NCBI GenBank assembly: GCA_963812945.1
Contig: CAWEXD010000004.1
Span: 77,178-141,177, forward strand
From: an uncultured Candidatus Rokubacteria bacterium
Lineage (GTDB): Bacteria; Methylomirabilota; Methylomirabilia; Rokubacteriales; DASRDR01
Direction: 5' to 3'
Length of the DNA: 64,000 nucleotides
The position numbers were made by a program, and so were the translations under genes. Positions 1,304 to 37,297 of the stretch are shown here, one piece after another (position 1 is the first letter of the stretch; each line of letters starts with the position of its first letter). Below the pieces are notes generated by a model. That model made no database searches and was not told where the DNA came from. It saw only the letters and a program-made list of their open reading frames with translations.

Positions 1304-2466
1304 CGCCCGCGGCGCTGCCCCCGGATCACCCGGCGCCCGTGAACCCCCCGTCGCTCGAGCGCTGGTTCCAGCGCGTCTTCGGCGACAGCGACGGGACACA
1401 CTTCGGCTCGGGCTGGATGTCGGGCACCGCCAGCGTGTTCCTGGGCGGGCTGGCTCTCCTCGGCGTGGTGGCGTTCTGGTTCCCGGGCGCGTTCTCCTCG
1501 GCGGCGTTCCGGGCCCACTACCCGATACCGCTGCTGCGCGCGCTGCTCGAGGTCACGATCGGCCTCGCGTTCCTGCTCGGCGCCGTCTCGCTCGTCCTGC
1601 GCCGGCGCAAGGTCCTGGGGCTCGCCGGGATCGGCCTCGCCCTCGCCGCCACGCTGGCCGGCGGCGGCAGCGTGCCGATCGAGAGCCGGTTCGACCAGCA
1701 GATCACGCTCGGGCTCGACTGGTTCCTGCTGAACCTGCTCCTGCTCGCGCTGGTGTTCGTGCCGCTCGAGCGCGCCTTCGCGCGCCTGCCGCAGCAGACG
1801 ACCTTCCGGCTCGGCTGGACCACCGACGGCGCCCACTTCATGGTGAGCCACCTGGCGGTCCAGGCGCTCACCTTCATGACGCTGCTGCCGGCAACCGCGC
1901 TCGCGACCGTGTGGCAGCCCGAGGCGCTGCGGCGAGCGATCCAGGGACAGCCGCTCGCGCTGCAGGCGCTCGAGATCCTCGTGGTCGCCGACTTCACCCA
2001 GTACTGGGTGCACCGCGCCTTTCACGCGGTGCCCTGGCTCTGGCGCTTCCACGCGATCCACCACTCGAGCCGCGCCCTCGACTGGCTGGCGGGCTCGCGC
2101 CTGCACGTGCTCGACGTCGTCGTCACGCGCGGCCTAGTGATGGTGCCGGTGTTCCTGCTCGGCTTCGCGCAGCCCGCGCTCTACGCGTACCTCCTGTTCG
2201 TGTCGTTCCACGCAGTGTTCATCCATGCCAACGTCCGGTTCCGGCTCGGCTGGCTCGATCGCGTGATCGCCACGCCCCGAGCGCATCACTGGCACCATGC
2301 GGTCGCGCCGATCGACAAGAACTTCGCCGTGCACCTGCCGGTCCTCGACGCCGTGTTCGGCACGCTCCACCTGCCCGGCGACGAGTGGCCGGCCGCCTAC
2401 GGAATGGCGGGGCAGCCGGTCCCGGAGGGCTGGGGGGCACAGCTCGTACACCCGTTCCGCCGTTAG
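1300..2466 (+). CDS. fatty acid hydroxylase / sterol desaturase superfamily integral membrane protein
   Basis: ATG at 1300 overlaps upstream stop (ATGA); His boxes HRAFH, HAIHHSS, HHWHH; several hydrophobic segments; the annotated ORF start 535 is a spurious extension overlapping the amidohydrolase. Confidence 0.8.
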   Translation: MTPAALPPDHPAPVNPPSLERWFQRVFGDSDGTHFGSGWMSGTASVFLGGLALLGVVAFWFPGAFSSAAFRAHYPIPLLRALLEVTIGLAFLLGAVSLVLRRRKVLGLAGIGLALAATLAGGGSVPIESRFDQQITLGLDWFLLNLLLLALVFVPLERAFARLPQQTTFRLGWTTDGAHFMVSHLAVQALTFMTLLPATALATVWQPEALRRAIQGQPLALQALEILVVADFTQYWVHRAFHAVPWLWRFHAIHHSSRALDWLAGSRLHVLDVVVTRGLVMVPVFLLGFAQPALYAYLLFVSFHAVFIHANVRFRLGWLDRVIATPRAHHWHHAVAPIDKNFAVHLPVLDAVFGTLHLPGDEWPAAYGMAGQPVPEGWGAQLVHPFRR

Positions 2467-3540
2467 CAATCCGCGCCGCCGCCCGCGGCCCGGCGTCAGC
2501 CGGCGGAGCCCCCATTGCAGCTCCTTGCGGATGACGCGGCGGGCGATCGTGAAGGGCAGCTTCACGCCATAGACCTCTTGGACGATGCGGCACACCAGCC
2601 AGGGGATCCCCGTCACCCGGGCGACCCGCTCGATCCAGCGATACTCGGGCGTCGCCCCCATGACACGCACGGTGGGAACGACGCGCCCGAAGGTGACGAG
2701 GTCCGAAAAGGTGCTGGCGGTGGTCCCGACGAACGCGTCGGTCGCGCGCAGGAGGAGCAGGTCGACGAGGGCGTCCTGGATGGCTTCCGGCGTGCCCCGG
2801 TCCAGGCTGTGCGGCGTCGTGTGGACCAGCCGGTCTCCGTACCGGGCCCGGAAGATCTCGCGCACACCTTCACGACGCGTCGGTCTCCCCTCCGGCTCCG
2901 GCGCGCCGTCGTCGGAGCAGAGCAGGATGCCCGCCTCGGGCATCGTGGCCAGGAACCGGTCGACCGCGACGAGCATCGCCGCCGTGTTCCACGACCGGTC
3001 GGGACGAACCCGCACGAAGTCGCCGCGCCGCGCATGCACGCCGATCATGCGCGCTCGGAAGCGCCGCGCCCGGAACGCCGCCACCCGATCGGCGACGGCA
3101 GCGCACGGCTCGAGGTGCCCGAGCAGCTCCGCGCAGCGCACGGCCAGGGCGCGGTGCGCGGGGAAGCGGTCCGGGAAGGTGAGCCATTTCGCGCTCCAGC
3201 GCAGGAGGTGCCGCTCCGGGGCGACGAGGAGGTCCTCGGCCTCCCGGGCGGGGTGGTCCGGGTGGGCCGGCCGCGCCAGCTCGCGCGGGAGCTGGTCGAC
3301 GTCGATCACCGGCCAGTCGCCGGCGAACAGCTCGCGAAACGCCGCACCGCATGCCGGAGTCCGGGGCCAGATCAGCGTGAACGTTCGGCCCGAAGCCTCG
3401 GCCAGCGCCATGCCGGACAGGAGCACCCGCAGGCGATTGCTCAGACCGGCACGGGTGAACACGGTGAGCGTCCGGGGCCCGCTCGTGGTGCCCTGGGGTA
3501 ACCCCGGGGTCAGATCCTCGTCGTGACCCACGCCGCCCAC
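2134..3540 (-). CDS. fucosyltransferase-like glycosyltransferase (GT11/GT23/NodZ-like motif set)
   Basis: motif I GLSNRL, HxRRxD motif (IGVHARRGDF) and FVGTxxSTFS motif in order; GTG start chosen just upstream of the conserved region (ATG absent); first in-frame stop only at 2134, so the 3' end overlaps the desaturase gene. Confidence 0.55.
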   Translation of the reverse strand: MGGVGHDEDLTPGLPQGTTSGPRTLTVFTRAGLSNRLRVLLSGMALAEASGRTFTLIWPRTPACGAAFRELFAGDWPVIDVDQLPRELARPAHPDHPAREAEDLLVAPERHLLRWSAKWLTFPDRFPAHRALAVRCAELLGHLEPCAAVADRVAAFRARRFRARMIGVHARRGDFVRVRPDRSWNTAAMLVAVDRFLATMPEAGILLCSDDGAPEPEGRPTRREGVREIFRARYGDRLVHTTPHSLDRGTPEAIQDALVDLLLLRATDAFVGTTASTFSDLVTFGRVVPTVRVMGATPEYRWIERVARVTGIPWLVCRIVQEVYGVKLPFTIARRVIRKELQWGLRRLTPGRGRRRGLLTAERVYELCPPALRDRLPRHSVGGRPLVAGQVERAEHGVEDRQVHGEVLVDRRDRMVPVMRSGRGDHAIEPAEPEPDVGMDEHCVERHEQEVRVERGLREAEQEHRHHH

Positions 3541-3547
3541 GGTCTCG

Positions 3548-4570
3548 TCACTCGGCGCCGCCCGAGACCCCCTGGCCGGGGAGGCGCCCGAGAGTCGGGA
3601 CCGGGCGCCCCGCGGCATCGGCCAACGCGCCGGGCCGACGTTCCTGCCGGCCCAGCCGCCCGGAGCGCGCCCACGAGCGTAGGGCCCGGCCGGAACAGAC
3701 GGTGAGCACGAGCCAGGCGTTGAGCACGTGGAGCAGCCGCACCGTGACCATCGCCGGGAAGGGCAGGCGACCGGTCCAGTCCCGAGGGACCGGGCATCGC
3801 CACGACCTGAGCGGCTTGAACATGCACTCCCGGCGCGGAGCCACGCCGAGCTCGTGGAGAGACTGGTGACCAAGGGCGATCCTCAGGCTCTTCCGGTAGA
3901 CGGCGCCGAGCGTGGCCCGGGCCGCGTGGCTGACCAGGGCGTCGGGGGCATACGCGACGCGCTCGCCCGCCCTCCACAGCCTATGGCCGAACTCGCGGTC
4001 GCCGCCCGTGACGAGCTCGGCGCGGAAGGGCCCATGCCGCTCGATCAGGTGAGCGTAGACCATCATGTTCGCGGTCGCCGCATAGTGCCGATTGACGTAC
4101 GCCTGCTGGTTGAAGCGGATCGCGGAGTCCCAGTACTCGTAGACGTTCGGCCGGGCCCCTCGGTAGGTGACCACGATGCGGCCCCCCACGATGGCGGCTC
4201 CCTCGGCCCTGAGCGCGCGAACACCGCTCTCGAGCCAGGTCGGCGCGGGAACGCAGTCGGCATCGGTGAAGGCCAGGATCTCGCCACGGGCGACGCTCAG
4301 CCCGCGGTTCCGGGCGGCATACGAGGTCCGGATCCGGTCCTCCACCACCAGCAAGAGCCGAGACCCTGCGCGGGCGCGAAGGTCCTCGACCACGGCCCGG
4401 GTGCCATCCGTGGATCCGTTGTCCGCGACGATGATCTCGTAGCGGTCCGGCGGATACGTCTGGTCGAGGAGAGCCCCCAGGCACGCCCGGATCCCGGGCC
4501 GGTCGCGCAGGACCGGCACCACGACCGATACGAGCGGGTCGGAGCCCCCCCGGTCAGTCATCGTCTCCAT
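3548..4570 (-). CDS. family 2 glycosyltransferase
   Basis: ATG (METMTD) then VSVVVPVL.D, ADNGSTDGT and TDAD (DxD) GT2 motifs; stop 3548 lies 8 nt above the start of the next gene on the same strand. Confidence 0.8.
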   Translation of the reverse strand: METMTDRGGSDPLVSVVVPVLRDRPGIRACLGALLDQTYPPDRYEIIVADNGSTDGTRAVVEDLRARAGSRLLLVVEDRIRTSYAARNRGLSVARGEILAFTDADCVPAPTWLESGVRALRAEGAAIVGGRIVVTYRGARPNVYEYWDSAIRFNQQAYVNRHYAATANMMVYAHLIERHGPFRAELVTGGDREFGHRLWRAGERVAYAPDALVSHAARATLGAVYRKSLRIALGHQSLHELGVAPRRECMFKPLRSWRCPVPRDWTGRLPFPAMVTVRLLHVLNAWLVLTVCSGRALRSWARSGRLGRQERRPGALADAAGRPVPTLGRLPGQGVSGGAE

Positions 4571-4741
4571 GTGGCGGCCTCCGACCGCTGCGCGTGGCGC
4601 CGTCGCTTCACCGCCGAAGGGTCCCAACCCGGCGGACTCCCCGGCGCTGCTCCGCGATACCCTACCACGAGGCCGAGTCGATGCCGGAGAACTGCGATGC
4701 GATCCGCTCACGCCGAGCCGCGCGGGATCGACGGCGCCGTC

Positions 4742-5665
4742 TCAACCGTCCTCCCGGCGCGCCGCGAAGTACTGCCGCACGTAGGCGTGGAGGTCCGGCT
4801 TGTCCGAGCTCCATCGCCAGCAGCCGGCATCGTCGTGCGCGATGTCGTGCCCGGGATCGAATCGGAACGGGGCGAGACCGAGGTGACGGGGCCGGATGCC
4901 GCGATCCTCGAGCCGCCCGTGCCAAAGATGGAACACGTCCCCCTCCAGACAGCCGACTCGACCGGCAACCGCGCGGTGAAACCGGCTCGCCCACGGGCGG
5001 TAGCGCGCCTCCTGGGCCGGATTCATGGCGTGCGTGCCGATCACGGTCTCGGGGGTCCCGAACGCGGCGCAGGTCATGGCGGAATCGCCCCCTCCGACGA
5101 TGCAGGCATCGTAGAATCCGTGCCGCGCGAGCACCTCACGCCGGTAGGCCCACCCGAACCCGTTGACCGTTGTGCCCGGGCGCCGCTCGGAGGTGGTGCT
5201 GAGGACGGTCATGGGATCCGACCCGCGCACGACGGCGTTCGCGGACGCCTCCTGCGCGAAGATCACTGCGTCCCGGGGCGGGCGCTCGGGGGCCCACTCA
5301 CGACGGAGGTGGTGGAGGCGCGTGAACAGCTGGACGGCGGAGACGCGCTCCAGCAGTGCGGTCGCCGCGGCACCCCAGTCCTCGCGCTCGAAGATGACGT
5401 CGCAGTCCAGGCTGGCCACCACCGTGCACTCGTCGGGGAGCCGCCCGAGCGCGACGTTGAGGAGCCTCTCCTTCTGCCAGAGGACATCACGGCCTCGCAG
5501 GCGCACGAGGAGGTCCGCGTCGTCGTCGGCCAGCTCGAAGCGATCGCCGTAGCCGAGCTCCACGGCGAGCAGGGGAGCGGCGAGACGGCGCCGGAATTCC
5601 CGGAAGTTCTCGAGCCGGCGGCGGTACCCGATCGGATTGAAGTACGACGTGATCGCCCAGAGCAT
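4742..5665 (-). CDS. conserved GT-A-like protein of unknown specificity (putative glycosyltransferase)
   Basis: starts MLWAITSYFNP (same start as paralog 9131..10054); DCD (DxD-like) motif SLDCDVIF; always paired with the GT2 gene. Confidence 0.55.
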   Translation of the reverse strand: MLWAITSYFNPIGYRRRLENFREFRRRLAAPLLAVELGYGDRFELADDDADLLVRLRGRDVLWQKERLLNVALGRLPDECTVVASLDCDVIFEREDWGAAATALLERVSAVQLFTRLHHLRREWAPERPPRDAVIFAQEASANAVVRGSDPMTVLSTTSERRPGTTVNGFGWAYRREVLARHGFYDACIVGGGDSAMTCAAFGTPETVIGTHAMNPAQEARYRPWASRFHRAVAGRVGCLEGDVFHLWHGRLEDRGIRPRHLGLAPFRFDPGHDIAHDDAGCWRWSSDKPDLHAYVRQYFAARREDG

Positions 5666-5792
5666 GCGGGGCCAACGACGGCGCCGCGTGGGCAAGGGAA
5701 TCACCGGTCCCTGTCCGCCCCACTCATCGCGCCGCAGTCGCCCTGGCTCAGGGTCAGAGACACCTCCCGCGGCTCCTGGCCGCGCCGGCCGA

Positions 5793-5822
5793 AATCTACG
5801 CCGATCCTCGAATCGCCGTCAA
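5793..5822 (-). promoter_or_regulatory. sigma-70-like promoter TTGACG-N18-TAGATT upstream of GT-A/GT2 cassette 1
   Basis: -35/-10 hexamers and 18-nt spacing conserved with copy 2 while spacer sequence diverged; about 130 nt upstream of ATG 5665. Confidence 0.35.
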
Positions 5823-5972
5823 GCGGTGTGGCGCTGAGGAGCCGGCTGGTGGTGACGCGACACGGGCCGCGCCGGCAGGCCCGCAGTTTGGTGCGCCAGC
5901 GTCGGTCGTGCGAAAATCGACGCTCGCCAGCATGCTCGGGCCCATTGACGACAGCGCGGGAAGAAGGGGCGG

Positions 5973-6893
5973 ATGACGGCGGCGCCCGAGCCGGGCGCGG
6001 CCGCCGTGACGAGCGACCCCGAACGGCTCGGTCCCGACCTCGAGGCCCTCGTGGCCGCTTTGGATGCCCCCGTCCGGCGCATCGTGACGCTCACGAGGCT
6101 CCGGGCGCCGGGCGTGGAGCACGCATCGTTCCGGCTCGAGCTCCTGGACGGCCGCGTCCTCAAGGGCCGGCGCCTGCCGAGCGCGGAGCACGCGGCGCGG
6201 GTGGCGACCATCCTCGACGTCATGGACCGGCGGCACTTCCCGCCCGTGATCGCCCGTCTCGGCGAGGCCCTCCTGGAGGAGTGGCGCCCCGGGGAGCCGC
6301 TGGATCACGCGACCCTGGGCCCGGGGCCAATGCGCCAATGCGGGGGGATTCTCGGGGCCGTGCATGGCGCCGTGCCCCCGGCGGTCGAGGTCGATAAGCG
6401 GGCGCGCCCCGAAGCGCGGCTGGCCGCGGTGCGATGGCAGTCCCGCAAACTCGTCAGGGCCGGCGCGCTGTCGGCTGCCTCGCGGGATCACCTCGTCGCG
6501 CTCCTCAAGGCTCAGCTCCCCGCTGACCCGGCGATCGGGGTGATCCACCGCGATTTCTGCGCCGAGAATCTCGTGTGGGACGCATCGGGACAGCCCCATG
6601 TCGTCGACAACGAGACCATGCAGATCGGGGCGCTCGACTTCGACCTGGCCCGGACCTGGTACCGCTGGCCCATGACGGACACTCAGGCAACCGCGTTCCT
6701 CGACGGGTACTCGGCCCATCGCAGCCCGGAGAGCTTCCTGGCGAGCTTCGTCTTCTGGACCCTCGCCGTGCTCGTGGACGTGTCGCGCTATCACCTGCGC
6801 GTCGGCACGGATCGGGCGCAGGGCGCCGTCGATCTCCTGCAGGCGATCCTCGACGGCTCCCCGGCGGTCGGCCGGTGGTGCCCGGCCCGATGA
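5973..6893 (+). CDS. aminoglycoside phosphotransferase / choline-kinase-like (APH family) kinase
   Basis: catalytic loop IHRDFCAENLVWD and DFD motif; kinase-like fold phosphotransferase signature. Confidence 0.75.
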   Translation: MTAAPEPGAAAVTSDPERLGPDLEALVAALDAPVRRIVTLTRLRAPGVEHASFRLELLDGRVLKGRRLPSAEHAARVATILDVMDRRHFPPVIARLGEALLEEWRPGEPLDHATLGPGPMRQCGGILGAVHGAVPPAVEVDKRARPEARLAAVRWQSRKLVRAGALSAASRDHLVALLKAQLPADPAIGVIHRDFCAENLVWDASGQPHVVDNETMQIGALDFDLARTWYRWPMTDTQATAFLDGYSAHRSPESFLASFVFWTLAVLVDVSRYHLRVGTDRAQGAVDLLQAILDGSPAVGRWCPAR

Positions 6894-8083
6894 CCGAGCC
6901 GGGCTCGGTCGAGGACCGCCTGTCGGCTCATCGCCGTGGCCTCCGGTACGCTGACCTGGCCATCGGCGTGGCCTGCCCCGAGCCCTCGTACCTCGTCTGG
7001 CTCGAGGAGTTCCTGGCCCCGGCCTTCGAGCCCACGGCGGCCGAGGGGTGCGACCGCTGGGTGGTGCTGGACCTGGACGCGTCGCGCCATGCCGCGACCC
7101 TGGCCCGCGGCCCGAGCCCGGACGCGGTCCCGGTGCCGTGCTTCGTCCTCGACGGCGGCACCGTGTGCCATCCGGAGTGGAACGGTAGCGGCCCGGACGA
7201 GCGGATCCTGTTCGACGCGCACTATCAGGCCTTCTACTGCGTCGAGCGCCGGAGTGGGCACGTCCGGATCCTCGCGACGCCGCGGCCCAATCTCACCCGG
7301 ATCGCGCTCATGCGGGTCGTCCGGGAGCTGGCGATGGCCGCGTCTCTCGCGCGCGGCGGCCTGCTTCTTCACGGCGCCGCGTTCGCGATCGGCGGGCGCG
7401 GAGTCGTCCTCGCCGGACCGAGGCGCGCCGGAAAGTCGACCCTGCTCCTCCACGCGCTCCAGGCGGCGGGGGCCCTGTTCATCTCGAACGACCGGGTGCT
7501 GGCCCGCCAGGACCAAGGCCACGTGGTGCTGCGCGGCATGCCCACGATCGTCAACCTGCGGCCAGGCACGCTCGCCATGTTTCCCGCCGTGTCGTCCCGC
7601 ATCCGGGCGCGGGGCTATCACCCTGCCCGGACCCTGGCCCAAGCCTCTCGACCGGGCGCGCGGCCGCGAGTCCCCCGCCCGGACGGCGCCGTCACGCTAA
7701 CGCCGCTCCAGTTCTGCGAGGCGGCGCAGGTCGGAGCGCTTCCCCAGGCAGAGGCGTGGCGACTCGTCTTTCCGCGGGTGCGCGAGTCGGGGGTCGGGAT
7801 CGAGCTCGACCCGCTGGACCCCGGGACGGCGGCCCGGCGGCTCCGCGCGGCGCTGTTCGCCGCCGAGCGCCCCGGCCAGGTCGCCGAGGCCTTCGCGGGC
7901 CCGGACGGCGCGGCGGACGTCGGCGAGGCGGCCCTTCAGCGCCGCGTCCTCGACCTCGCGGCCCGGGTGCCGTGCTACGACGCCGCGCTCGGCGTCGAGG
8001 CGTACGGCGGGGCCGGAGCGGCCGACGAGTTCATCGCTCGGCTGGCCGGCCCGACACCGACCGTCGCGGGGCCCCGCTCTTAG
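6890..8083 (+). CDS. HprK C-terminal-domain-like P-loop kinase
   Basis: ATG at 6890 overlaps APH stop (ATGA); Walker A LAGPRRAGKSTLLL preceded by LLHGAAFA.GGRGV, as in the HPr kinase/phosphorylase C-domain. Confidence 0.65.
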   Translation: MTEPGSVEDRLSAHRRGLRYADLAIGVACPEPSYLVWLEEFLAPAFEPTAAEGCDRWVVLDLDASRHAATLARGPSPDAVPVPCFVLDGGTVCHPEWNGSGPDERILFDAHYQAFYCVERRSGHVRILATPRPNLTRIALMRVVRELAMAASLARGGLLLHGAAFAIGGRGVVLAGPRRAGKSTLLLHALQAAGALFISNDRVLARQDQGHVVLRGMPTIVNLRPGTLAMFPAVSSRIRARGYHPARTLAQASRPGARPRVPRPDGAVTLTPLQFCEAAQVGALPQAEAWRLVFPRVRESGVGIELDPLDPGTAARRLRAALFAAERPGQVAEAFAGPDGAADVGEAALQRRVLDLAARVPCYDAALGVEAYGGAGAADEFIARLAGPTPTVAGPRS

Positions 8084-9134
8084 CCTTCGGCCCGTCGACG
8101 GTCGTATGGCCCTCGGCGGCGCGCACCCTCGCGGCGGTGGCGGTTGACGTCGTCGCGTCCAGTCGACGGTCCTCCGAGATCAGCCGCCGGGGACGTTCCC
8201 AGGTCCCGAGACCCTGGACGAGGCAGATCATGAGCCGGAACCAGGCGTGGAGATGGTGAACCAGCCGAACCGCGACGCTGGTTGTCAGCGGCAGACGACC
8301 CGTCCAGTCCCGAGAAACCGGGCATCGCCACGACTTGATCAGCTTGAGCGCGCACTCCCCGGGCGGCACCACGCCGAGCCGGTGGAGAGGCCGCTGGCCG
8401 AGGGCCAGTCTGAGGCCCTTCCGGTAGACGGCCTCAAGCGTGGCCCGGGCGGGATGGGCGACGATCGCGTCGGGAGCATACGCGAGGCGCTCCCCAGCCT
8501 TCCACAGGCGGAATCCGAACTCACGGTCGCCACCGGAGACCAGCTCGGGCCGGAACGGTCCATGGCGCTCGATCACGCGGGCCTGGACGAACAGGTTCGC
8601 AGTCGCCGCGTAGTGGTGCCTCACGTACAACTCCTGGTTGAATCGCACCGCGGAGTCCCAGTACTCGTAGGCGTTCGGCCGGGGCCCCGCGAAGGTGACC
8701 ACGATCCGGCCCCCCACGCATGCGGCTCCTGAGGCCCGGAGCGCGCGGACACCCTGCTCGAGCCAGGTCGGAGCGGGAACGCAATCGGCATCGGTGAACG
8801 CCAGCACCTGGCCCCGGGCCACGCGAAGCCCGCGATTCCGGGCGGCATAGGAGGTCCGGACCTGGTCCTCCACCACCAGCGAGAGGCGGGCGCCCGCCCG
8901 GGCGCGAACGCGCTCGACGATGGCCCGGATGCCATCCGTGGACCCGTTGTCGGCGACGATGATCTCGTAGCGGTCCGGCGGATAGGTCTGCTGGAGTAGG
9001 GCCTCCAGGCACGTCCCGATCACGGGGCCGTCGTGCAGGACGGGCACCACGACCGACACGAACGGGTGCAAGGGACCCCGTTCCGGCAGGTGGGGGGCCG
9101 GCGGGGCCGCGCGGGATCCGTCCCCGGCGTTCAC
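8031..9134 (-). CDS. family 2 glycosyltransferase, paralog of 3548..4570 (about 80% aa identity in the GT2 domain)
   Basis: VSVVVPVLHD, ADNGSTDG, TDAD conserved; no ATG, GTG at 9134 overlaps the upstream stop (GTGA); start uncertain (TTG/GTG alternatives 9070-9134). Confidence 0.65.
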   Translation of the reverse strand: MNAGDGSRAAPPAPHLPERGPLHPFVSVVVPVLHDGPVIGTCLEALLQQTYPPDRYEIIVADNGSTDGIRAIVERVRARAGARLSLVVEDQVRTSYAARNRGLRVARGQVLAFTDADCVPAPTWLEQGVRALRASGAACVGGRIVVTFAGPRPNAYEYWDSAVRFNQELYVRHHYAATANLFVQARVIERHGPFRPELVSGGDREFGFRLWKAGERLAYAPDAIVAHPARATLEAVYRKGLRLALGQRPLHRLGVVPPGECALKLIKSWRCPVSRDWTGRLPLTTSVAVRLVHHLHAWFRLMICLVQGLGTWERPRRLISEDRRLDATTSTATAARVRAAEGHTTVDGPKAKSGAPRRSVSGRPAER

Positions 9135-10054
9135 CCGTCTTCCCGGCGCGTCTCGAAGTACTGCCGCACGTAGGCGTGAAGGTCCGGCTTGTCCGAATTC
9201 CAGCGCCAGGAGCCGGCATCGTCCAGCGCGATGTCGCTCCGGGGATCGAACCGGAAGCGGCTCAGGCCGAGATGGCGCTGACGGGTCCCGCGATCCTCGA
9301 GCCGTCCGTGCCAGAGATGGAAGAGATCCCCATCCAGGCAGCCGACCCGACTGGCGACCGAGCGGTGAAACGGGCTCGCCCACGCGCGGTAGCGCGTTTC
9401 CTGGGCCGGATTCATGCCCTGCACGTCGACGACGACCCCGGGACACCCGAACGCGGCGCAAGCCATGGCGTTATCACCGCCTCCGACAATGCACGCGTCG
9501 TAGAATCCGTGCCGCTCGACCACCTCGCGCCGGAAGGCCCAGCCGAACCCAGGGGCGACCACGCTGGCGTTGCGCTTGAACAAGGGAGCCAGGGCCACCG
9601 CGGGATCCGACCCGCGACCAATCGTGCTCGCGGATGACTCCTGCGCGAAGTCCACCGCCTCGCGGAGCGCGCGCCCGGGAACCCAATCGCGACGGAGGTA
9701 GTGGACGCGCGCGAACAGCTGGACGGCGGAGAAGCGCGCCAGCAGCGCGTGGGCGGCCGTCGCCCAGTCTTCGCGCTCGAAGATGACGTCGCAGTCCAGA
9801 CTTGCCACCGCCGTGCACCCGGTGGGGAGCCGCCCGAGCGCAACGTTGAGGAGCCGCTCCTTCTGCCAGAGGACATCACGCCCCCGCAGGCGCACGAGGA
9901 GGTCCGCGTCGTCGTGCCCCAGCTCGAACCGGTCGCCGTAGCAGAGCTCCACCGCGAGCAGGGGGACGGCGAGGCGGCGACGGAACTCCCGGAAGTTCTC
10001 GAGCCGGCGGCGGTATCCGGCGGGATTGAAGTACGAGGTGATCGCCCAGAGCAT
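9131..10054 (-). CDS. GT-A-like protein, paralog of 4742..5665
   Basis: ATG start MLWAITSYFNP; SLDCDVIF motif conserved; nucleotide similarity extends into the upstream promoter region. Confidence 0.6.
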   Translation of the reverse strand: MLWAITSYFNPAGYRRRLENFREFRRRLAVPLLAVELCYGDRFELGHDDADLLVRLRGRDVLWQKERLLNVALGRLPTGCTAVASLDCDVIFEREDWATAAHALLARFSAVQLFARVHYLRRDWVPGRALREAVDFAQESSASTIGRGSDPAVALAPLFKRNASVVAPGFGWAFRREVVERHGFYDACIVGGGDNAMACAAFGCPGVVVDVQGMNPAQETRYRAWASPFHRSVASRVGCLDGDLFHLWHGRLEDRGTRQRHLGLSRFRFDPRSDIALDDAGSWRWNSDKPDLHAYVRQYFETRREDG

Positions 10055-10190
10055 CCGGCGCGCGACTAGCGAGGGTGCTCCGCCCGGACCAGCCGCTCTA
10101 CCATGCGAAGGGGCTCGCCGTTCTTGCCGCTTCGGACCAACAACTCAGGGACTCAGGTTCCTTCCGCGGCTCCCGGCCGCGTCCAGGCGA

Positions 10191-10220
10191 AATCTACGCC
10201 GGCACCCCGGGGGCCGTCAA
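10191..10220 (-). promoter_or_regulatory. sigma-70-like promoter TTGACG-N18-TAGATT upstream of cassette 2
   Basis: same hexamers and spacing as 5793..5822; about 135 nt upstream of ATG 10054. Confidence 0.35.
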
Positions 10221-10239
10221 GGCGGGCGGCGTCGGGACG

Positions 10240-11550
10240 TCAGTATCCTTTGCCCGCAATCCTGAGCACGGAGGGCAGCCAGAGCGAGATGATGGGAAAC
10301 GCGATCAGGATCGCGAGGCGCACGACGTCGGCCACCACGAAGGGCATGACGCCGCGGAACAGCGTGGGGGTCGGCACCTGCGGCAGGAGCGCGTTGATCA
10401 CGAACAGGTTCATGCCGACCGGCGGGCTGATCAGGCCGATCTCCACCACGACCACGATGAGGATCCCGAACCACACGGGATCGAGGCCGAGGCTCACGAC
10501 GACCGGGAAGAACACCGGCACCGTCAAGAGGATCATCGACAGCTCTTCCATGGCGGTGCCGAGGATCACGTAGATCGCGCACATCGCCGCCACCACCACC
10601 GCGGGGTGGAGCGCGAAGCGCTCCACGAAGTGCTGGAGGTCCCGCGGCATCGACGTGAAGTTGATGAAGTTCGCGAACACGAGCGCGCCGATCAGGATCA
10701 TGAACAGCATCGAGGTCGTCCGCGCCGACTCCAGCAGGACGTCGCGCAACGCGCTCCAGCTGAGCGACCGGCGCGCGAGGGCGAACACGAACGCGCCGAA
10801 CGCGCCGATCCCCGCCCCTTCGGTGGCCGTGAAGATCCCCGCGTAGATGCCCCCGATCGACAGGGCGAAGAGCGCGACAACGCCCCAGACCCCTCGCAGC
10901 GCGCGCCACCGGTCGGCCCACGACGAGCGCTCGCCGGCCGGACCGGCGGCCGGCTCGCGCCAGACCATGTACTGGACCGCCAGGCACAGGAGGAACGCGG
11001 CGAGGATGCCGGGCAGCACCCCCGCGGCGAAGAGCCGGCCGATGTTGGTCTCGGTCATGATCCCGTAGATGACCATGATCGTGGACGGCGGGATCAGGAT
11101 GCCGAGCGTGCCGCCGGCGGCGATCGAGCTCGCGGCGAGCTTGTCCGAGTAGCCCAGCTGGCGCATGGGCGGGTACGCGACGCGCGTCATGGTGGCGGCC
11201 GTGGCGATCGAGGAGCCGCAGATGGCGCCGAACCCGGCGCAGGCCACGATGGTCGACATGGCGAGCCCGCCCCGCCAGTGGCCGATGAAGGTGTGGGCGG
11301 CCCGGAACAGCTCCTGCGACATCCCGGCCCGGGCCACCAGGTTGCCCATGAGGATGAAGAGGGGCACGACCGAGAGCTCGTAGTTGATCCCGGCCGCGAA
11401 CGTCGTCTGGGCCAGCTGGTCGAGCGCCGCCGGGATCCCGCGCTTCCAGGCGAACCCCGCCCCGCCCACGATCAGCATGGAGAACGCGACCGGGATGCGC
11501 GCGAAGGCGAGCCCGAGGAGGCCCGCGAAGGCGAGGAGGGTCTCGGTCAC
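10240..11550 (-). CDS. dctM: TRAP transporter large permease
   Basis: about 12 TM DctM-family sequence; GTG start overlaps dctQ stop (GTGA). Confidence 0.85.
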   Translation of the reverse strand: MTETLLAFAGLLGLAFARIPVAFSMLIVGGAGFAWKRGIPAALDQLAQTTFAAGINYELSVVPLFILMGNLVARAGMSQELFRAAHTFIGHWRGGLAMSTIVACAGFGAICGSSIATAATMTRVAYPPMRQLGYSDKLAASSIAAGGTLGILIPPSTIMVIYGIMTETNIGRLFAAGVLPGILAAFLLCLAVQYMVWREPAAGPAGERSSWADRWRALRGVWGVVALFALSIGGIYAGIFTATEGAGIGAFGAFVFALARRSLSWSALRDVLLESARTTSMLFMILIGALVFANFINFTSMPRDLQHFVERFALHPAVVVAAMCAIYVILGTAMEELSMILLTVPVFFPVVVSLGLDPVWFGILIVVVVEIGLISPPVGMNLFVINALLPQVPTPTLFRGVMPFVVADVVRLAILIAFPIISLWLPSVLRIAGKGY

Positions 11551-20900: not shown

Positions 20901-21599
20901 TCAGCCCTGAACCTTGAGGTTGTTGACCACGCGGCGCACACCCTCGACCTGCTGCGCAAGCTCGGTCGCACGCTGTCGTGTCTTGTCGCTGTCGACGGTG
21001 CCGTTCAGCTGCACGATGCCCTGCTTCGTGTCGACGTCGACCTTAAGCAGGGTGGCCGGCGACACCCCGGCGAGCCTCGTCTTCACCGCTGCGGTGATCG
21101 ACGCGTCGCTCCACGCCTTGCTGACTTCCTTGCCCCAGTCTCGGTCATTCGGATCCGGGTACTTGTCCGCCGTGAAGCTCGGTGACCGCTCGAGAGCCTC
21201 CTTCGTCACGTCGACGTGGACCGTCCGCTTCTCGCGGTCGAGAATCACCGCGTTCCAGGGCACGGCGAAGAGCTTGTCGCCGACGCCGAGGAACCCGCCG
21301 AACGACACCACGGCGTAGGCCACGTTCCCCTTGTAGTCGACAAGCAGATCCTCGATTTTCCCCGCGTCCTTGCCGGCCAGATCCTTGACGCCGCTCCCCA
21401 CCACCGAGCTGGCCCGGTAGAGACCCGTGTGCTCGGCGAAGCGTTTCGTGTTGGTGATCGGCTCGGCGCTCTTGGACACCTGCCCCGCGACAGACTTGGG
21501 CGCTGCGGGCTTGGATGCCGACTGGGCGCTCGCGTCCGTCATCCCCAGTGCGCCGCCAAGCGCCACCGCGGTGACGAAGGCGCAAACTCGGGTCTTCAT
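20901..21599 (-). CDS. PRC-barrel plus BON domain secreted protein
   Basis: signal peptide; PRC-barrel-like middle; C-terminal BON domain nearly identical in pattern to 36992..37297 (..ATL.KVDVDT..G.V.L.G.V....I.ARATELAQ.V.GVR.VVNNLKVQ). Confidence 0.7.
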   Translation of the reverse strand: MKTRVCAFVTAVALGGALGMTDASAQSASKPAAPKSVAGQVSKSAEPITNTKRFAEHTGLYRASSVVGSGVKDLAGKDAGKIEDLLVDYKGNVAYAVVSFGGFLGVGDKLFAVPWNAVILDREKRTVHVDVTKEALERSPSFTADKYPDPNDRDWGKEVSKAWSDASITAAVKTRLAGVSPATLLKVDVDTKQGIVQLNGTVDSDKTRQRATELAQQVEGVRRVVNNLKVQG

Positions 21600-29597: not shown

Positions 29598-29644
29598 AGC
29601 CTCGCCGTCCGGCTCTTCAACCGAAGAGGCCGGACGGCGAGGCT
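29598..29644. terminator. 16-bp stem hairpin between convergent genes
   Basis: agcctcgccgtccggc / gccggacggcgaggct with 15-nt loop, between 29589 and 29665. Confidence 0.5.
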
Positions 29645-36991: not shown

Positions 36992-37297
36992 ATGCGACAC
37001 CTGTTCCGTTCGATGCTCGCGCTGACCCTGCTCATGGCGGTCACCGCGGGCTGCACCGCCATGACCGGCAAGTCGGCCGGGGACAACGTCGACGACGTCA
37101 AGATCACCACGGCCGTGAAGACCAAGCTCGCCGGCGAGAAACCGGCGACTCTCACGAAGGTCGACGTCGACACGAACAAGGGCACCGTCTACCTGACGGG
37201 CAACGTCGAGAACACGGCAATCAAGGCGCGGGCGACCGAGCTCGCCCAGTCTGTCTCCGGCGTCCGTGAGGTCGTCAACAACCTGAAGGTCCAGTAG
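36992..37297 (+). CDS. BON-domain lipoprotein (OsmY-like)
   Basis: SD GGGAGGTG; lipobox LTLLMAVTAGC; BON domain. Confidence 0.75.
   Translation: MRHLFRSMLALTLLMAVTAGCTAMTGKSAGDNVDDVKITTAVKTKLAGEKPATLTKVDVDTNKGTVYLTGNVENTAIKARATELAQSVSGVREVVNNLKVQ

Follow-up and report, generated by a model that had tools for sequence, protein, structure and literature searches.

The window analysed here, a 64,000-nucleotide (nt) stretch of contig CAWEXD010000004.1 from an uncultured Candidatus Rokubacteria bacterium (base composition about 71% G+C), carries two related copies of a glycosyltransferase gene pair, X1-G1 (cassette 1) and X2-G2 (cassette 2). As the original prediction, a reading of the bare sequence, had proposed, the two cassettes flank two kinase genes, which encode an APH-family kinase (PF01636) and an HprK-related P-loop kinase. 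The resulting island lies between the genes dctPQM of a tripartite ATP-independent periplasmic (TRAP) transporter and a fatty-acid-hydroxylase gene, and comprises three transcription units: X2 and G2 behind the promoter-like element Px2; the APH-family kinase followed by the HprK/PEPCK-fold kinase; and X1, G1 and a fucosyltransferase-like gene behind Px1 (Table 1). The G+C content at third codon positions (GC3) is 0.86–0.91 in the island genes, compared with 0.94–0.98 for most of the flanking genes.

Table 1. Genes and non-coding features of the glycosylation island, in window coordinates.
Feature	Position	Strand	Description
Promoter-like element, cassette 2 (Px2)	10191..10220	-	TTGACG-N18-TAGATT
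5' leader, cassette 2	10055..10190	-	136 nt; palindrome CGCGGC-N5-GCCGCG at 10181-10165
X2	9131..10054	-	307 aa; predicted GT-A-fold glycosyltransferase-like protein; DCD 87-89, GGGD 191-194, HLWHG 246-250
G2	8031..9134	-	GT2 glycosyltransferase, 367 aa; GTG start overlaps the X2 TGA as GTGA
HprK/ScmC-like P-loop kinase	6890..8083	+	397 aa; start overlaps the APH stop by 4 nt
APH-family kinase	5973..6893	+	306 aa; PF01636; divergent from X1
Promoter-like element, cassette 1 (Px1)	5793..5822	-	TTGACG-N18-TAGATT
5' leader, cassette 1	5666..5792	-	127 nt; same conserved first block as cassette 2; palindrome CGCGGC-N5-GCCGCG at 5784-5768
X1	4742..5665	-	307 aa; X2 paralogue
X1-G1 spacer	4571..4741	-	non-coding, 171 nt; GGAGG at 4582-4578
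G1	3548..4570	-	GT2 glycosyltransferase, 340 aa; ATG start, GGAGG 7 nt before
Fucosyltransferase-like open reading frame (ORF)	2134..3540	-	GTG at 3540, 7 nt past the G1 stop; contains 'HARRGDF'

A blastn alignment of positions 3400–6000 with 7900–10400 revealed collinear minus-strand segments (approximately 3762–5822 and 8290–10220) with 82% DNA identity. The plus/plus matches pair 4717–5669 with 9106–10058 (82.4% over 962 columns), 3762–4539 with 8290–9067 (82.4% over 782 columns) and, in the upstream region, 5763–5803 with 10160–10201 (88% over 42 columns). Similarity thus spans both genes and their upstream region on the same strand and in the same order, as expected for a segmental duplication and unlike a set of short local matches, which bears out the description of a diverged duplicate of a two-gene unit including its promoter-like element. 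A third copy was found neither at the DNA nor at the protein level in the window. X1 and X2 share 76% of their amino acids (aa) over 307 aa in a gap-free alignment, in line with the high identity that had been predicted for this pair. For G1 and G2 the predicted value of about 80% was too high: identity amounts to 72.8% in a 276-aa core and drops to 66% over the entire proteins, owing to unlike N-terminal extensions and C-terminal tails. The tails are variable in all GT2 homologues aligned with G1 and G2.

None of the four genes contains a frameshift or internal stop, so that neither copy is a pseudogene by this measure, and the protein lengths agree with the gene calls of the source assemblies. 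The two copies also differ in how the second gene starts, as predicted: G1 begins with ATG after a gap of 171 nt, G2 with the GTGA overlap. A longer G1 starting at GTG 4711 was considered and rejected; the spacer aligns to that of the related locus L082 (about 80% conserved) with 1-nt indels, GGAGG precedes the ATG at 4570, and the source gene call is 340 aa.

G1 and G2 clearly belong to family GT2, scoring 101.8 and 100.8 bits against PF00535 (gathering cut-off 23.3). The acidic motifs DNGS.D, D.D and GGDRE are present, with D50, D103/D105 and D191 invariant in a five-sequence alignment. The nearest curated NCBIfam models are MftF (the best) and EpsD, and both matches fall far under the equivalog cut-offs; for MftF (TIGR03965), scores of 134.1 and 137.5 bits compare with at least 280 bits required for membership.

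In X1 and X2, no match was found to Pfam, NCBIfam or PDB sequences, and the precomputed Pfam field was empty in all 120 homologues listed, which are all unnamed or annotated as "hypothetical protein". An AlphaFold2 model of X (pLDDT 88.9, pTM 0.89) matched GT-A enzymes in Foldseek at a probability of 1.0, namely K4CP, AvpGT, the hyaluronan and heparosan synthases (HAS, HS2), TarS, WrtF and ppGalNAc-T2, with TM scores of about 0.45–0.49 against K4CP and other GT-A enzymes. Largely the same structures are recovered by sequence with a GT2 profile that was derived from G1 and G2. Hence the earlier label "GT-A-like" was right, and so was the failure to name a family, since the fold matches GT-A and no curated family does. 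When X was aligned to the GT2 profile with hhalign, the alignment was weak (E 0.006, probability 6.4%), with the X motif LDCD paired with GT2 TDAD and RHGFYDACIVGGGD with RHGPFRAELVTGGDRE. In a 50-sequence alignment of X, the invariant or near-invariant positions are W3, N10, WQKERLL (63–69), D87-C88-D89, G191-G192-G193-D194, H246-L247-W248-H249-G250 and a C-terminal block; within the DxD, D87 is invariant and C88 and D89 occur in at least 90% of the homologues, and H246 and H249 are invariant or nearly so. According to the model, X is a GT-A-fold protein whose DxD and GGD motifs align to those of GT2 enzymes. With inverting GT2 enzymes such as K4CP, MftF and EpsD it would share the fold, an N-terminal beta-strand with the "YFNP" element, the DxD and the GGD; it differs from them in its own invariant motifs WQKERLLN, HLWHG and a C-terminal WRW...K...H...Y..RREDG.

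The X family has many members. Among 1.84 billion representatives, clustered at 50% identity, a profile search detected 5,282 clusters at E<=1e-3, of which 4,393 pass E<=1e-10, and a genome scan gave 561 loci in Rokubacteria, Proteobacteria, Nitrospirales, Planctomycetota, Binatia, Acidobacteriota and others. At least two X genes are present in 39 of 166 loci and at least three in 12, mostly arranged head to tail. Recurrent neighbours are Methyltransf_24, GT4 and GFO/IDH/MocA oxidoreductase genes, and in long family members X is fused to GT4, NodZ-like, GT2, Glyco_tranf_2_4 or GT8 domains. These tandem copies, glycan-type neighbours and glycosyltransferase fusions point to a role in oligosaccharide assembly. 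A scan of JGI metagenomes for closer relatives gave a best match of 60% identity, and an exact look-up of P0001 found no record.

Further observations concern other members of this family. Many are 640–1050 aa long (P0194–P0199, P0205, P0206 and similar) and consist of two X-like stretches or of X with additional unannotated domains; P0199, P0211, P0226 and P0238 match no Pfam family. In two otherwise unlike loci (L001, 8715–9989; L085, 1150–2928) an HD_4/DUF6817 protein is encoded directly upstream of X and is possibly a further partner of the family. Remote homologues with 31–35% identity (L087, Cupriavidus plasmid NZ_CP017750, 8992–9915; L088, a Burkholderia contaminans plasmid, 8986–9927) are located on megaplasmids, amid blocks of hypothetical genes near PRTRC, ParB and RES-Xre genes, and are annotated only as hypothetical.

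The genes for the APH-family and the HprK/PEPCK-fold kinase are translationally coupled and form one operon. The former protein scores 66.8 bits against PF01636 (gathering cut-off 23.2), with no equivalog-level NCBIfam match. For the latter, the best curated match is TIGR04355 (HprK-related kinase B; 51.8 bits, E 6.5e-14), below the cut-off of 200, and PF27840, "ScmC", is the precomputed Pfam family of its homologues. Phosphoenolpyruvate (PEP) carboxykinase (PEPCK) and HPr kinase belong to one P-loop superfamily. The AlphaFold2 model (pLDDT 91.9) matches PEP carboxykinases in Foldseek (E 1.6e-08), the Walker-A residues G176, G181 and K182 are invariant, and a weak HprK sequence match covers the same stretch, so that fold and Walker-A motif together place the protein in this HprK/PEPCK-like superfamily.

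The HprK-like family is small (59 matches), and in some organisms its members are fused to the APH-family kinase in proteins of 670 aa (P0132–P0134); on the P0133 contig, the fusion gene closes an operon that also encodes three GT4 enzymes and an Asn_synthase-like protein. Both kinases co-occur with X in L001 (Rokubacteria), L081 and L082 and, at 32–40% identity, in loci of Thiohalocapsa, Phycisphaera, Vicinamibacterales and Pseudomonadales, i.e., across Rokubacteria, gamma-proteobacteria, Planctomycetota and Acidobacteriota. Additional genes in these distant loci encode an ABC exporter, NTP_transf_5, a sulfotransferase and more GT2 and GT4 enzymes. Given their co-occurrence across phyla and the fusions, we take the two kinases to be a functional pair that goes with glycosyltransferases of different families. 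A literature search on HprK-related kinases and SynChlorMet/ScmC yielded nothing useful. By eye, TTGGTG-N18-GAAAAT can be read at 5888–5917 on the plus strand, some 55 nt ahead of the APH start codon; the promoter scan did not report it. It lies in sequence blocks conserved in L081, L082, L083 and L169, where it may drive the kinase operon in the direction opposite to Px1.

The element TTGACG-N18-TAGATT is kept upstream of both cassettes, as had been noticed from the sequence. In a sigma-70-like scan of 7.1 kb, its two occurrences were the only matches (0.3 expected), and the exact motif occurs only twice in the 64-kb window and in none of 100 shuffles. Each site combines 9 of 12 consensus matches with an 18-nt spacer and is located 127–136 nt upstream of an X start. 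The motif is identical in L083 and before both cassettes of L170, has TAATTT as its -10 box in L082, is degraded in L081 and is replaced in L169. In view of their spacing, position and conservation, the sites are putative sigma-70-type promoters. The first approximately 35 nt of the leader after the -10 box are 88% conserved, more than the coding sequence, and include the palindrome CGCGGC-N5-GCCGCG, which may form a 5' stem-loop or serve as an operator; L082 keeps the palindrome arms with a 4-nt spacer. A regulatory RNA in the leaders or in the 171-nt spacer was considered and discarded. Against Rfam, the sole match in 3300–10400 at E<=1 was a sub-threshold Actino-pnp at 6863–6920, outside leaders and spacer, and no match reached the gathering score in the whole window; fold energies were no better than those of shuffles (z -0.09, +0.69 and +0.91, of which +0.69 belongs to the cassette 2 leader and +0.91 to the X1-G1 spacer).

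The four glycosyltransferase genes, all intact, evolve under purifying selection. The ratio of non-synonymous to synonymous divergence (dN/dS, omega; NG86/YN00) is 0.38/0.20 for X1 versus X2 and 0.49/0.18 for G1 versus G2, compared with 0.11/0.01 for DctM versus its L081 counterpart. Divergence is unevenly distributed: residues 1–115 of X1 and X2 are 88% identical (omega 0.22), residues 116–170 only 47% (omega 0.84) and residues 201–215 likewise 47% (omega 0.8 or more), and G1 and G2 diverge most in the C-terminal third. For X, this pattern fits a conserved donor site combined with an altered acceptor side.

Three relatives carry the flanking genes of the window, namely L081, L169 and L170. 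In L081, where flanking genes are 86–95% identical to those of the window at the amino acid level (DctM 95%, DctP 94%, amidohydrolase 90%, hydroxylase 88%), the order is dctPQM, the kinases, a single X-GT2 pair with a TTGA overlap, and the hydroxylase gene. L169 (flanks 91–97% aa identity) has the kinases, an extra GT2 gene ("G3"), an X1-type X, a G1-type GT2 and the fucosyltransferase-like gene, and its interval between kinases and dctM is empty. L170 (94.5–97.4% nt identity) shows the two-cassette layout of the window, both promoter motifs and the same 53-nt overlap between G2 and the kinase gene; its frameshifts are attributed to assembly errors, since they also hit dctM, dctQ and a methionine-synthase-family gene. 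In L001, the module is found in another chromosomal context. L081, L169 and L170 derive from samples ERZ25039550 and ERZ25039469. L169 and L170, both from ERZ25039469, represent related populations with different structural variants of the island: the extra GT2 of L169 (7803–8822) sits between APH and X, the full second cassette of L170 between the kinases and dctM.

The two copies of the window are not each other's closest relatives. X1, G1 and the APH-family kinase are closest to L082 (82%, 80% and 84%), X2 to L083/L084 (89%) and then L081 (79%), and G2 to L081 (82%; a 61-residue stretch of the L084 GT2 gives 77%). In a neighbour-joining tree, X1 groups with L082 (bootstrap 100%), and X2 with L083 (100%) and then L081 (98%). 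X1 and X2 are consequently not sister paralogues, as each groups with genes from other genomes. The original prediction of an old duplication maintained under selection thus held as to age and purifying selection, though the copies are not each other's nearest kin. Both start arrangements are inherited, the spacer of about 170 nt being common to L082 and the overlap to L081. Moreover, cassette type does not track the relatedness of the flanks: L081 is of the X2 type, L169 of the X1 type. The X2-like gene of L083 is divergent from APH, i.e., in the standard position. The X1 and X2 types resemble alleles of a single locus that replace one another, and the lineage of the window and L170 carries both.

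Taking these data together, we give a probability of roughly 0.6 to the explanation that the region as a whole is a small, fast-evolving and recombination-prone glycosylation island of a Rokubacteria/Methylomirabilota-like high-GC genome, which serves successive sugar transfer and has captured an X2-type unit. A lineage with the X1 type at the standard APH-adjacent position would have gained the X2-type unit in the dctM/kinase intergenic region, most likely by recombination with a related lineage. The extra unit begins about 10 nt ahead of the -35 box, which lies 19 nt past the dctM stop, and its other end is about 8 codons short of where the GT2 natively stops; G2 has lost these last codons and continues for about 35 codons, unrelated to its homologues, into the 3' end of the kinase gene. 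Acquiring the second allele from a related lineage is no less probable than producing it by duplication within the genome, and we favour this route. Recent gene conversion between the copies was considered and rejected, as there are no long identical tracts (longest run 31–32 nt).

At the level of donor, acceptor and product, we infer function as follows. X and its GT2 partner would, in succession, each transfer one sugar from a nucleotide sugar to a common acceptor (a glycan, glycolipid or glycopeptide), and the kinases would phosphorylate a sugar or the acceptor; kinases acting on glycans have precedents in WaaP/WaaY of the lipopolysaccharide (LPS) core and in POMK. As the donor half of X is kept, and residues 116–170 and 201–215 as well as the C-terminal third of the GT2 have diverged, the second cassette most likely adds a different linkage or addresses another acceptor position, by which the product may be extended or diversified. 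Like variable surface-glycan loci in general (O-antigen, capsule, LPS-core and protein-glycosylation loci), the island is compact and combines several transferase families with kinases; it likewise shows structural variants between close relatives, alleles that do not track their flanks and a GC3 below that of the flanks. It differs from such loci in that its duplicated unit brings its own promoter-like element and, to our knowledge, the pair of APH-family and PEPCK/HprK-fold kinases is not the one described there.

Several points weigh against this explanation. Within about 10 kb, nothing resembles a priming transferase, flippase, polymerase or exporter, and a chain-length gene as in surface-glycan loci is likewise missing nearby. 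The adjacent transporter is a TRAP importer that is present in the single-cassette locus L081, too. Characterised HprK homologues target protein or peptide serines, not sugars (PMC8498205). X lacks a sequence match to any curated glycosyltransferase model in Pfam, NCBIfam or the PDB sequences, and its hhalign probability against GT2 is the 6.4% given above. The promoter amounts to a 9-of-12 consensus match, and the motif is degraded in L081. Residues 116–170 of X form the lowest-confidence loop of the model and vary across the whole family, and relaxed constraint is for this reason an equally valid account of the elevated omega there as a change of specificity. Lastly, comparison of the window with L169 and L081 did not place the edges of the insertion to the base, since the three have diverged too far in the dctM/kinase intergenic region.

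The best-surviving alternative, tentative in our view, is an ancient in-genome duplication, for example a tandem duplication of kinases, X and GT2 with subsequent loss of one kinase pair and with rearrangement. It would have preceded the split of the lineages of L081, L082, L083 and L169, and one copy would since have disappeared from most descendants. The layout dctM / X2 G2 / kinases / X1 G1 would be just such a four-gene tandem minus one kinase pair. Consistently, the NG86 dS between the copies (0.39–0.42) exceeds that of the flanking genes against L081 (0.27–0.36), and the second GT2 of L169, which is nearer to G2 (81% DNA identity) than to G1 (76%), could be a remnant of a second cassette. 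However, the X1 type (L082) and the X2 type (L081, L083) share the APH-adjacent position in single-cassette genomes, and an ancient duplication therefore needs relocation besides loss; the discordance between cassette type and flank relatedness in L081 and L169 also argues against it.

Somewhat less probable is a more far-reaching reading of function. Here, X would be a new, very large family at the CAZy level, which in some organisms works with a dedicated and sometimes fused APH and PEPCK/HprK kinase pair on a phosphorylated glycoconjugate by an undescribed route, the promoter-bearing cassettes being interchangeable specificity modules that related lineages swap. Two versions are conceivable, namely a phosphorylation in two steps by which the acceptor is activated or marked, and the phosphoglycosylation of a peptide encoded elsewhere.

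A related but doubtful possibility is that the module tailors a ribosomal peptide or protein, the HprK-like kinase phosphorylating a serine and the transferases glycosylating the serine or the phosphate, comparable to paeninodin and pseudomycoidin. In its favour, the kinase carries PF27840, named after ScmC, which is presumably part of a cassette for a ribosomally synthesised and post-translationally modified peptide (RiPP), and the best NCBIfam match of G1 and G2, at 134–137 bits, is the mycofactocin glycosyltransferase MftF. Such chemistry exists in lasso peptides, where HprK homologues phosphorylate the C-terminal serine of the precursor and a nucleotidyltransferase then adds hexoses (PMC8498205), and the distant loci with both kinases and X hold NTP_transf_5, sulfotransferase and ABC exporter genes, the accessory set described in the same review. 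The window kinase is thus similar to the HPr-kinase homologues of RiPP pathways (paeninodin kinase, pseudomycoidin kinase/nucleotidyltransferase, ScmC, TIGR04352/TIGR04355) in its P-loop superfamily and in these distant neighbours.

It differs from them in being always paired, sometimes fused, with an APH-family kinase and in being accompanied by glycosyltransferases, and neither a precursor peptide nor a cyclase or leader-recognition protein was found with it in the scanned loci. A lasso cyclase, PqqD or transglutaminase-like gene was absent from the window, the syntenic locus and the scanned ORFs of L021 and L076, with L029 and L041 partly scanned; more generally, RiPP partners were lacking among the Pfam-annotated neighbours of the syntenic locus and among that part of the distant ORFs that was scanned. 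A precursor gene in the intergenic regions was searched for in six-frame translations of five homologous regions and rejected, as no conserved small ORF appeared. In addition, the MftF and HprK_rel_B scores are far under their cut-offs, and the fusions and neighbours of the X family are all glycan-type enzymes.

Recent duplication, in contrast, is excluded, and even a version with unusually fast divergence of one or both copies in this genome is very improbable: the copies are adjacent, with the same gene order and promoter-like motif, and the island does evolve faster (omega 0.2–0.5 against 0.01–0.19 in the flanks), but X1 and X2 have closer relatives elsewhere (82% and 89%, against 76% to each other; bootstrap 98–100%), synonymous divergence is large, and L170, 94–97% identical to the window, already has both copies, about 82% identical to each other. 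Least plausible of all is that one cassette is a decaying, non-functional remnant, for which the altered G2 terminus and an omega near 0.8–0.9 in parts of both genes could speak, since the four ORFs are full length, every invariant family residue is kept in both copies, overall omega is well under 1, C-terminal tails vary in all homologues, and X2 and G2 are the best-conserved island genes against L170 (97–98% aa identity).

The fucosyltransferase-like ORF downstream of G1 has no Pfam match itself, and a few of its homologues (45–51% identity) carry PF10250 (O-FucT) or PF05830 (NodZ). Its "HARRGDF" is, as we assume, an HxRRGD-type fucosyltransferase motif, and the gene probably encodes a fucosyltransferase-like third transferase of cassette 1. 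All homologues end near 2500, and the ORF goes on for about 115 extra codons down to 2134, on the strand opposite the 3' end of the fatty-acid-hydroxylase gene (1303–2466). The cause is either loss of the stop codon or an indel in the assembly.

G2 and the HprK-like kinase gene are convergent, with 3' ends overlapping by 53 nt (8031–8083), and antisense interference between the two units is possible. An anti-phage defence system was considered as well and rejected; PADLOC gave two matches only, at E of about 0.002–0.003. Unrelated to the cassettes, self-comparison of the window revealed an inverted pair of about 200 nt (20907–21108 and 37090–37294, 73% identical, 16 kb apart), and a near-perfect 47-nt palindrome is present at 29598–29644.

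Cassette duplication is an ordinary route of glycan-locus diversification, and the duplication described here is ordinary in this sense. The unit of exchange is nevertheless unusually clear, consisting of promoter, leader and two transferases with edges just outside the -35 box and inside the last gene, and the island thus provides a clean example of a promoter-bearing two-gene module exchanged among close relatives. The X family and the paired kinases are the modestly novel part, and the X family is of more consequence than the duplication. The recurrent pair of APH-family and HprK/PEPCK-fold kinases beside glycosyltransferases offers a lead, open to testing, towards phosphorylated glycoconjugates of uncultured soil phyla. 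The X family itself is unnamed in the libraries searched, occurs in many phyla and often in several copies per genome, and a single biochemical characterisation of one member would annotate thousands of genes.

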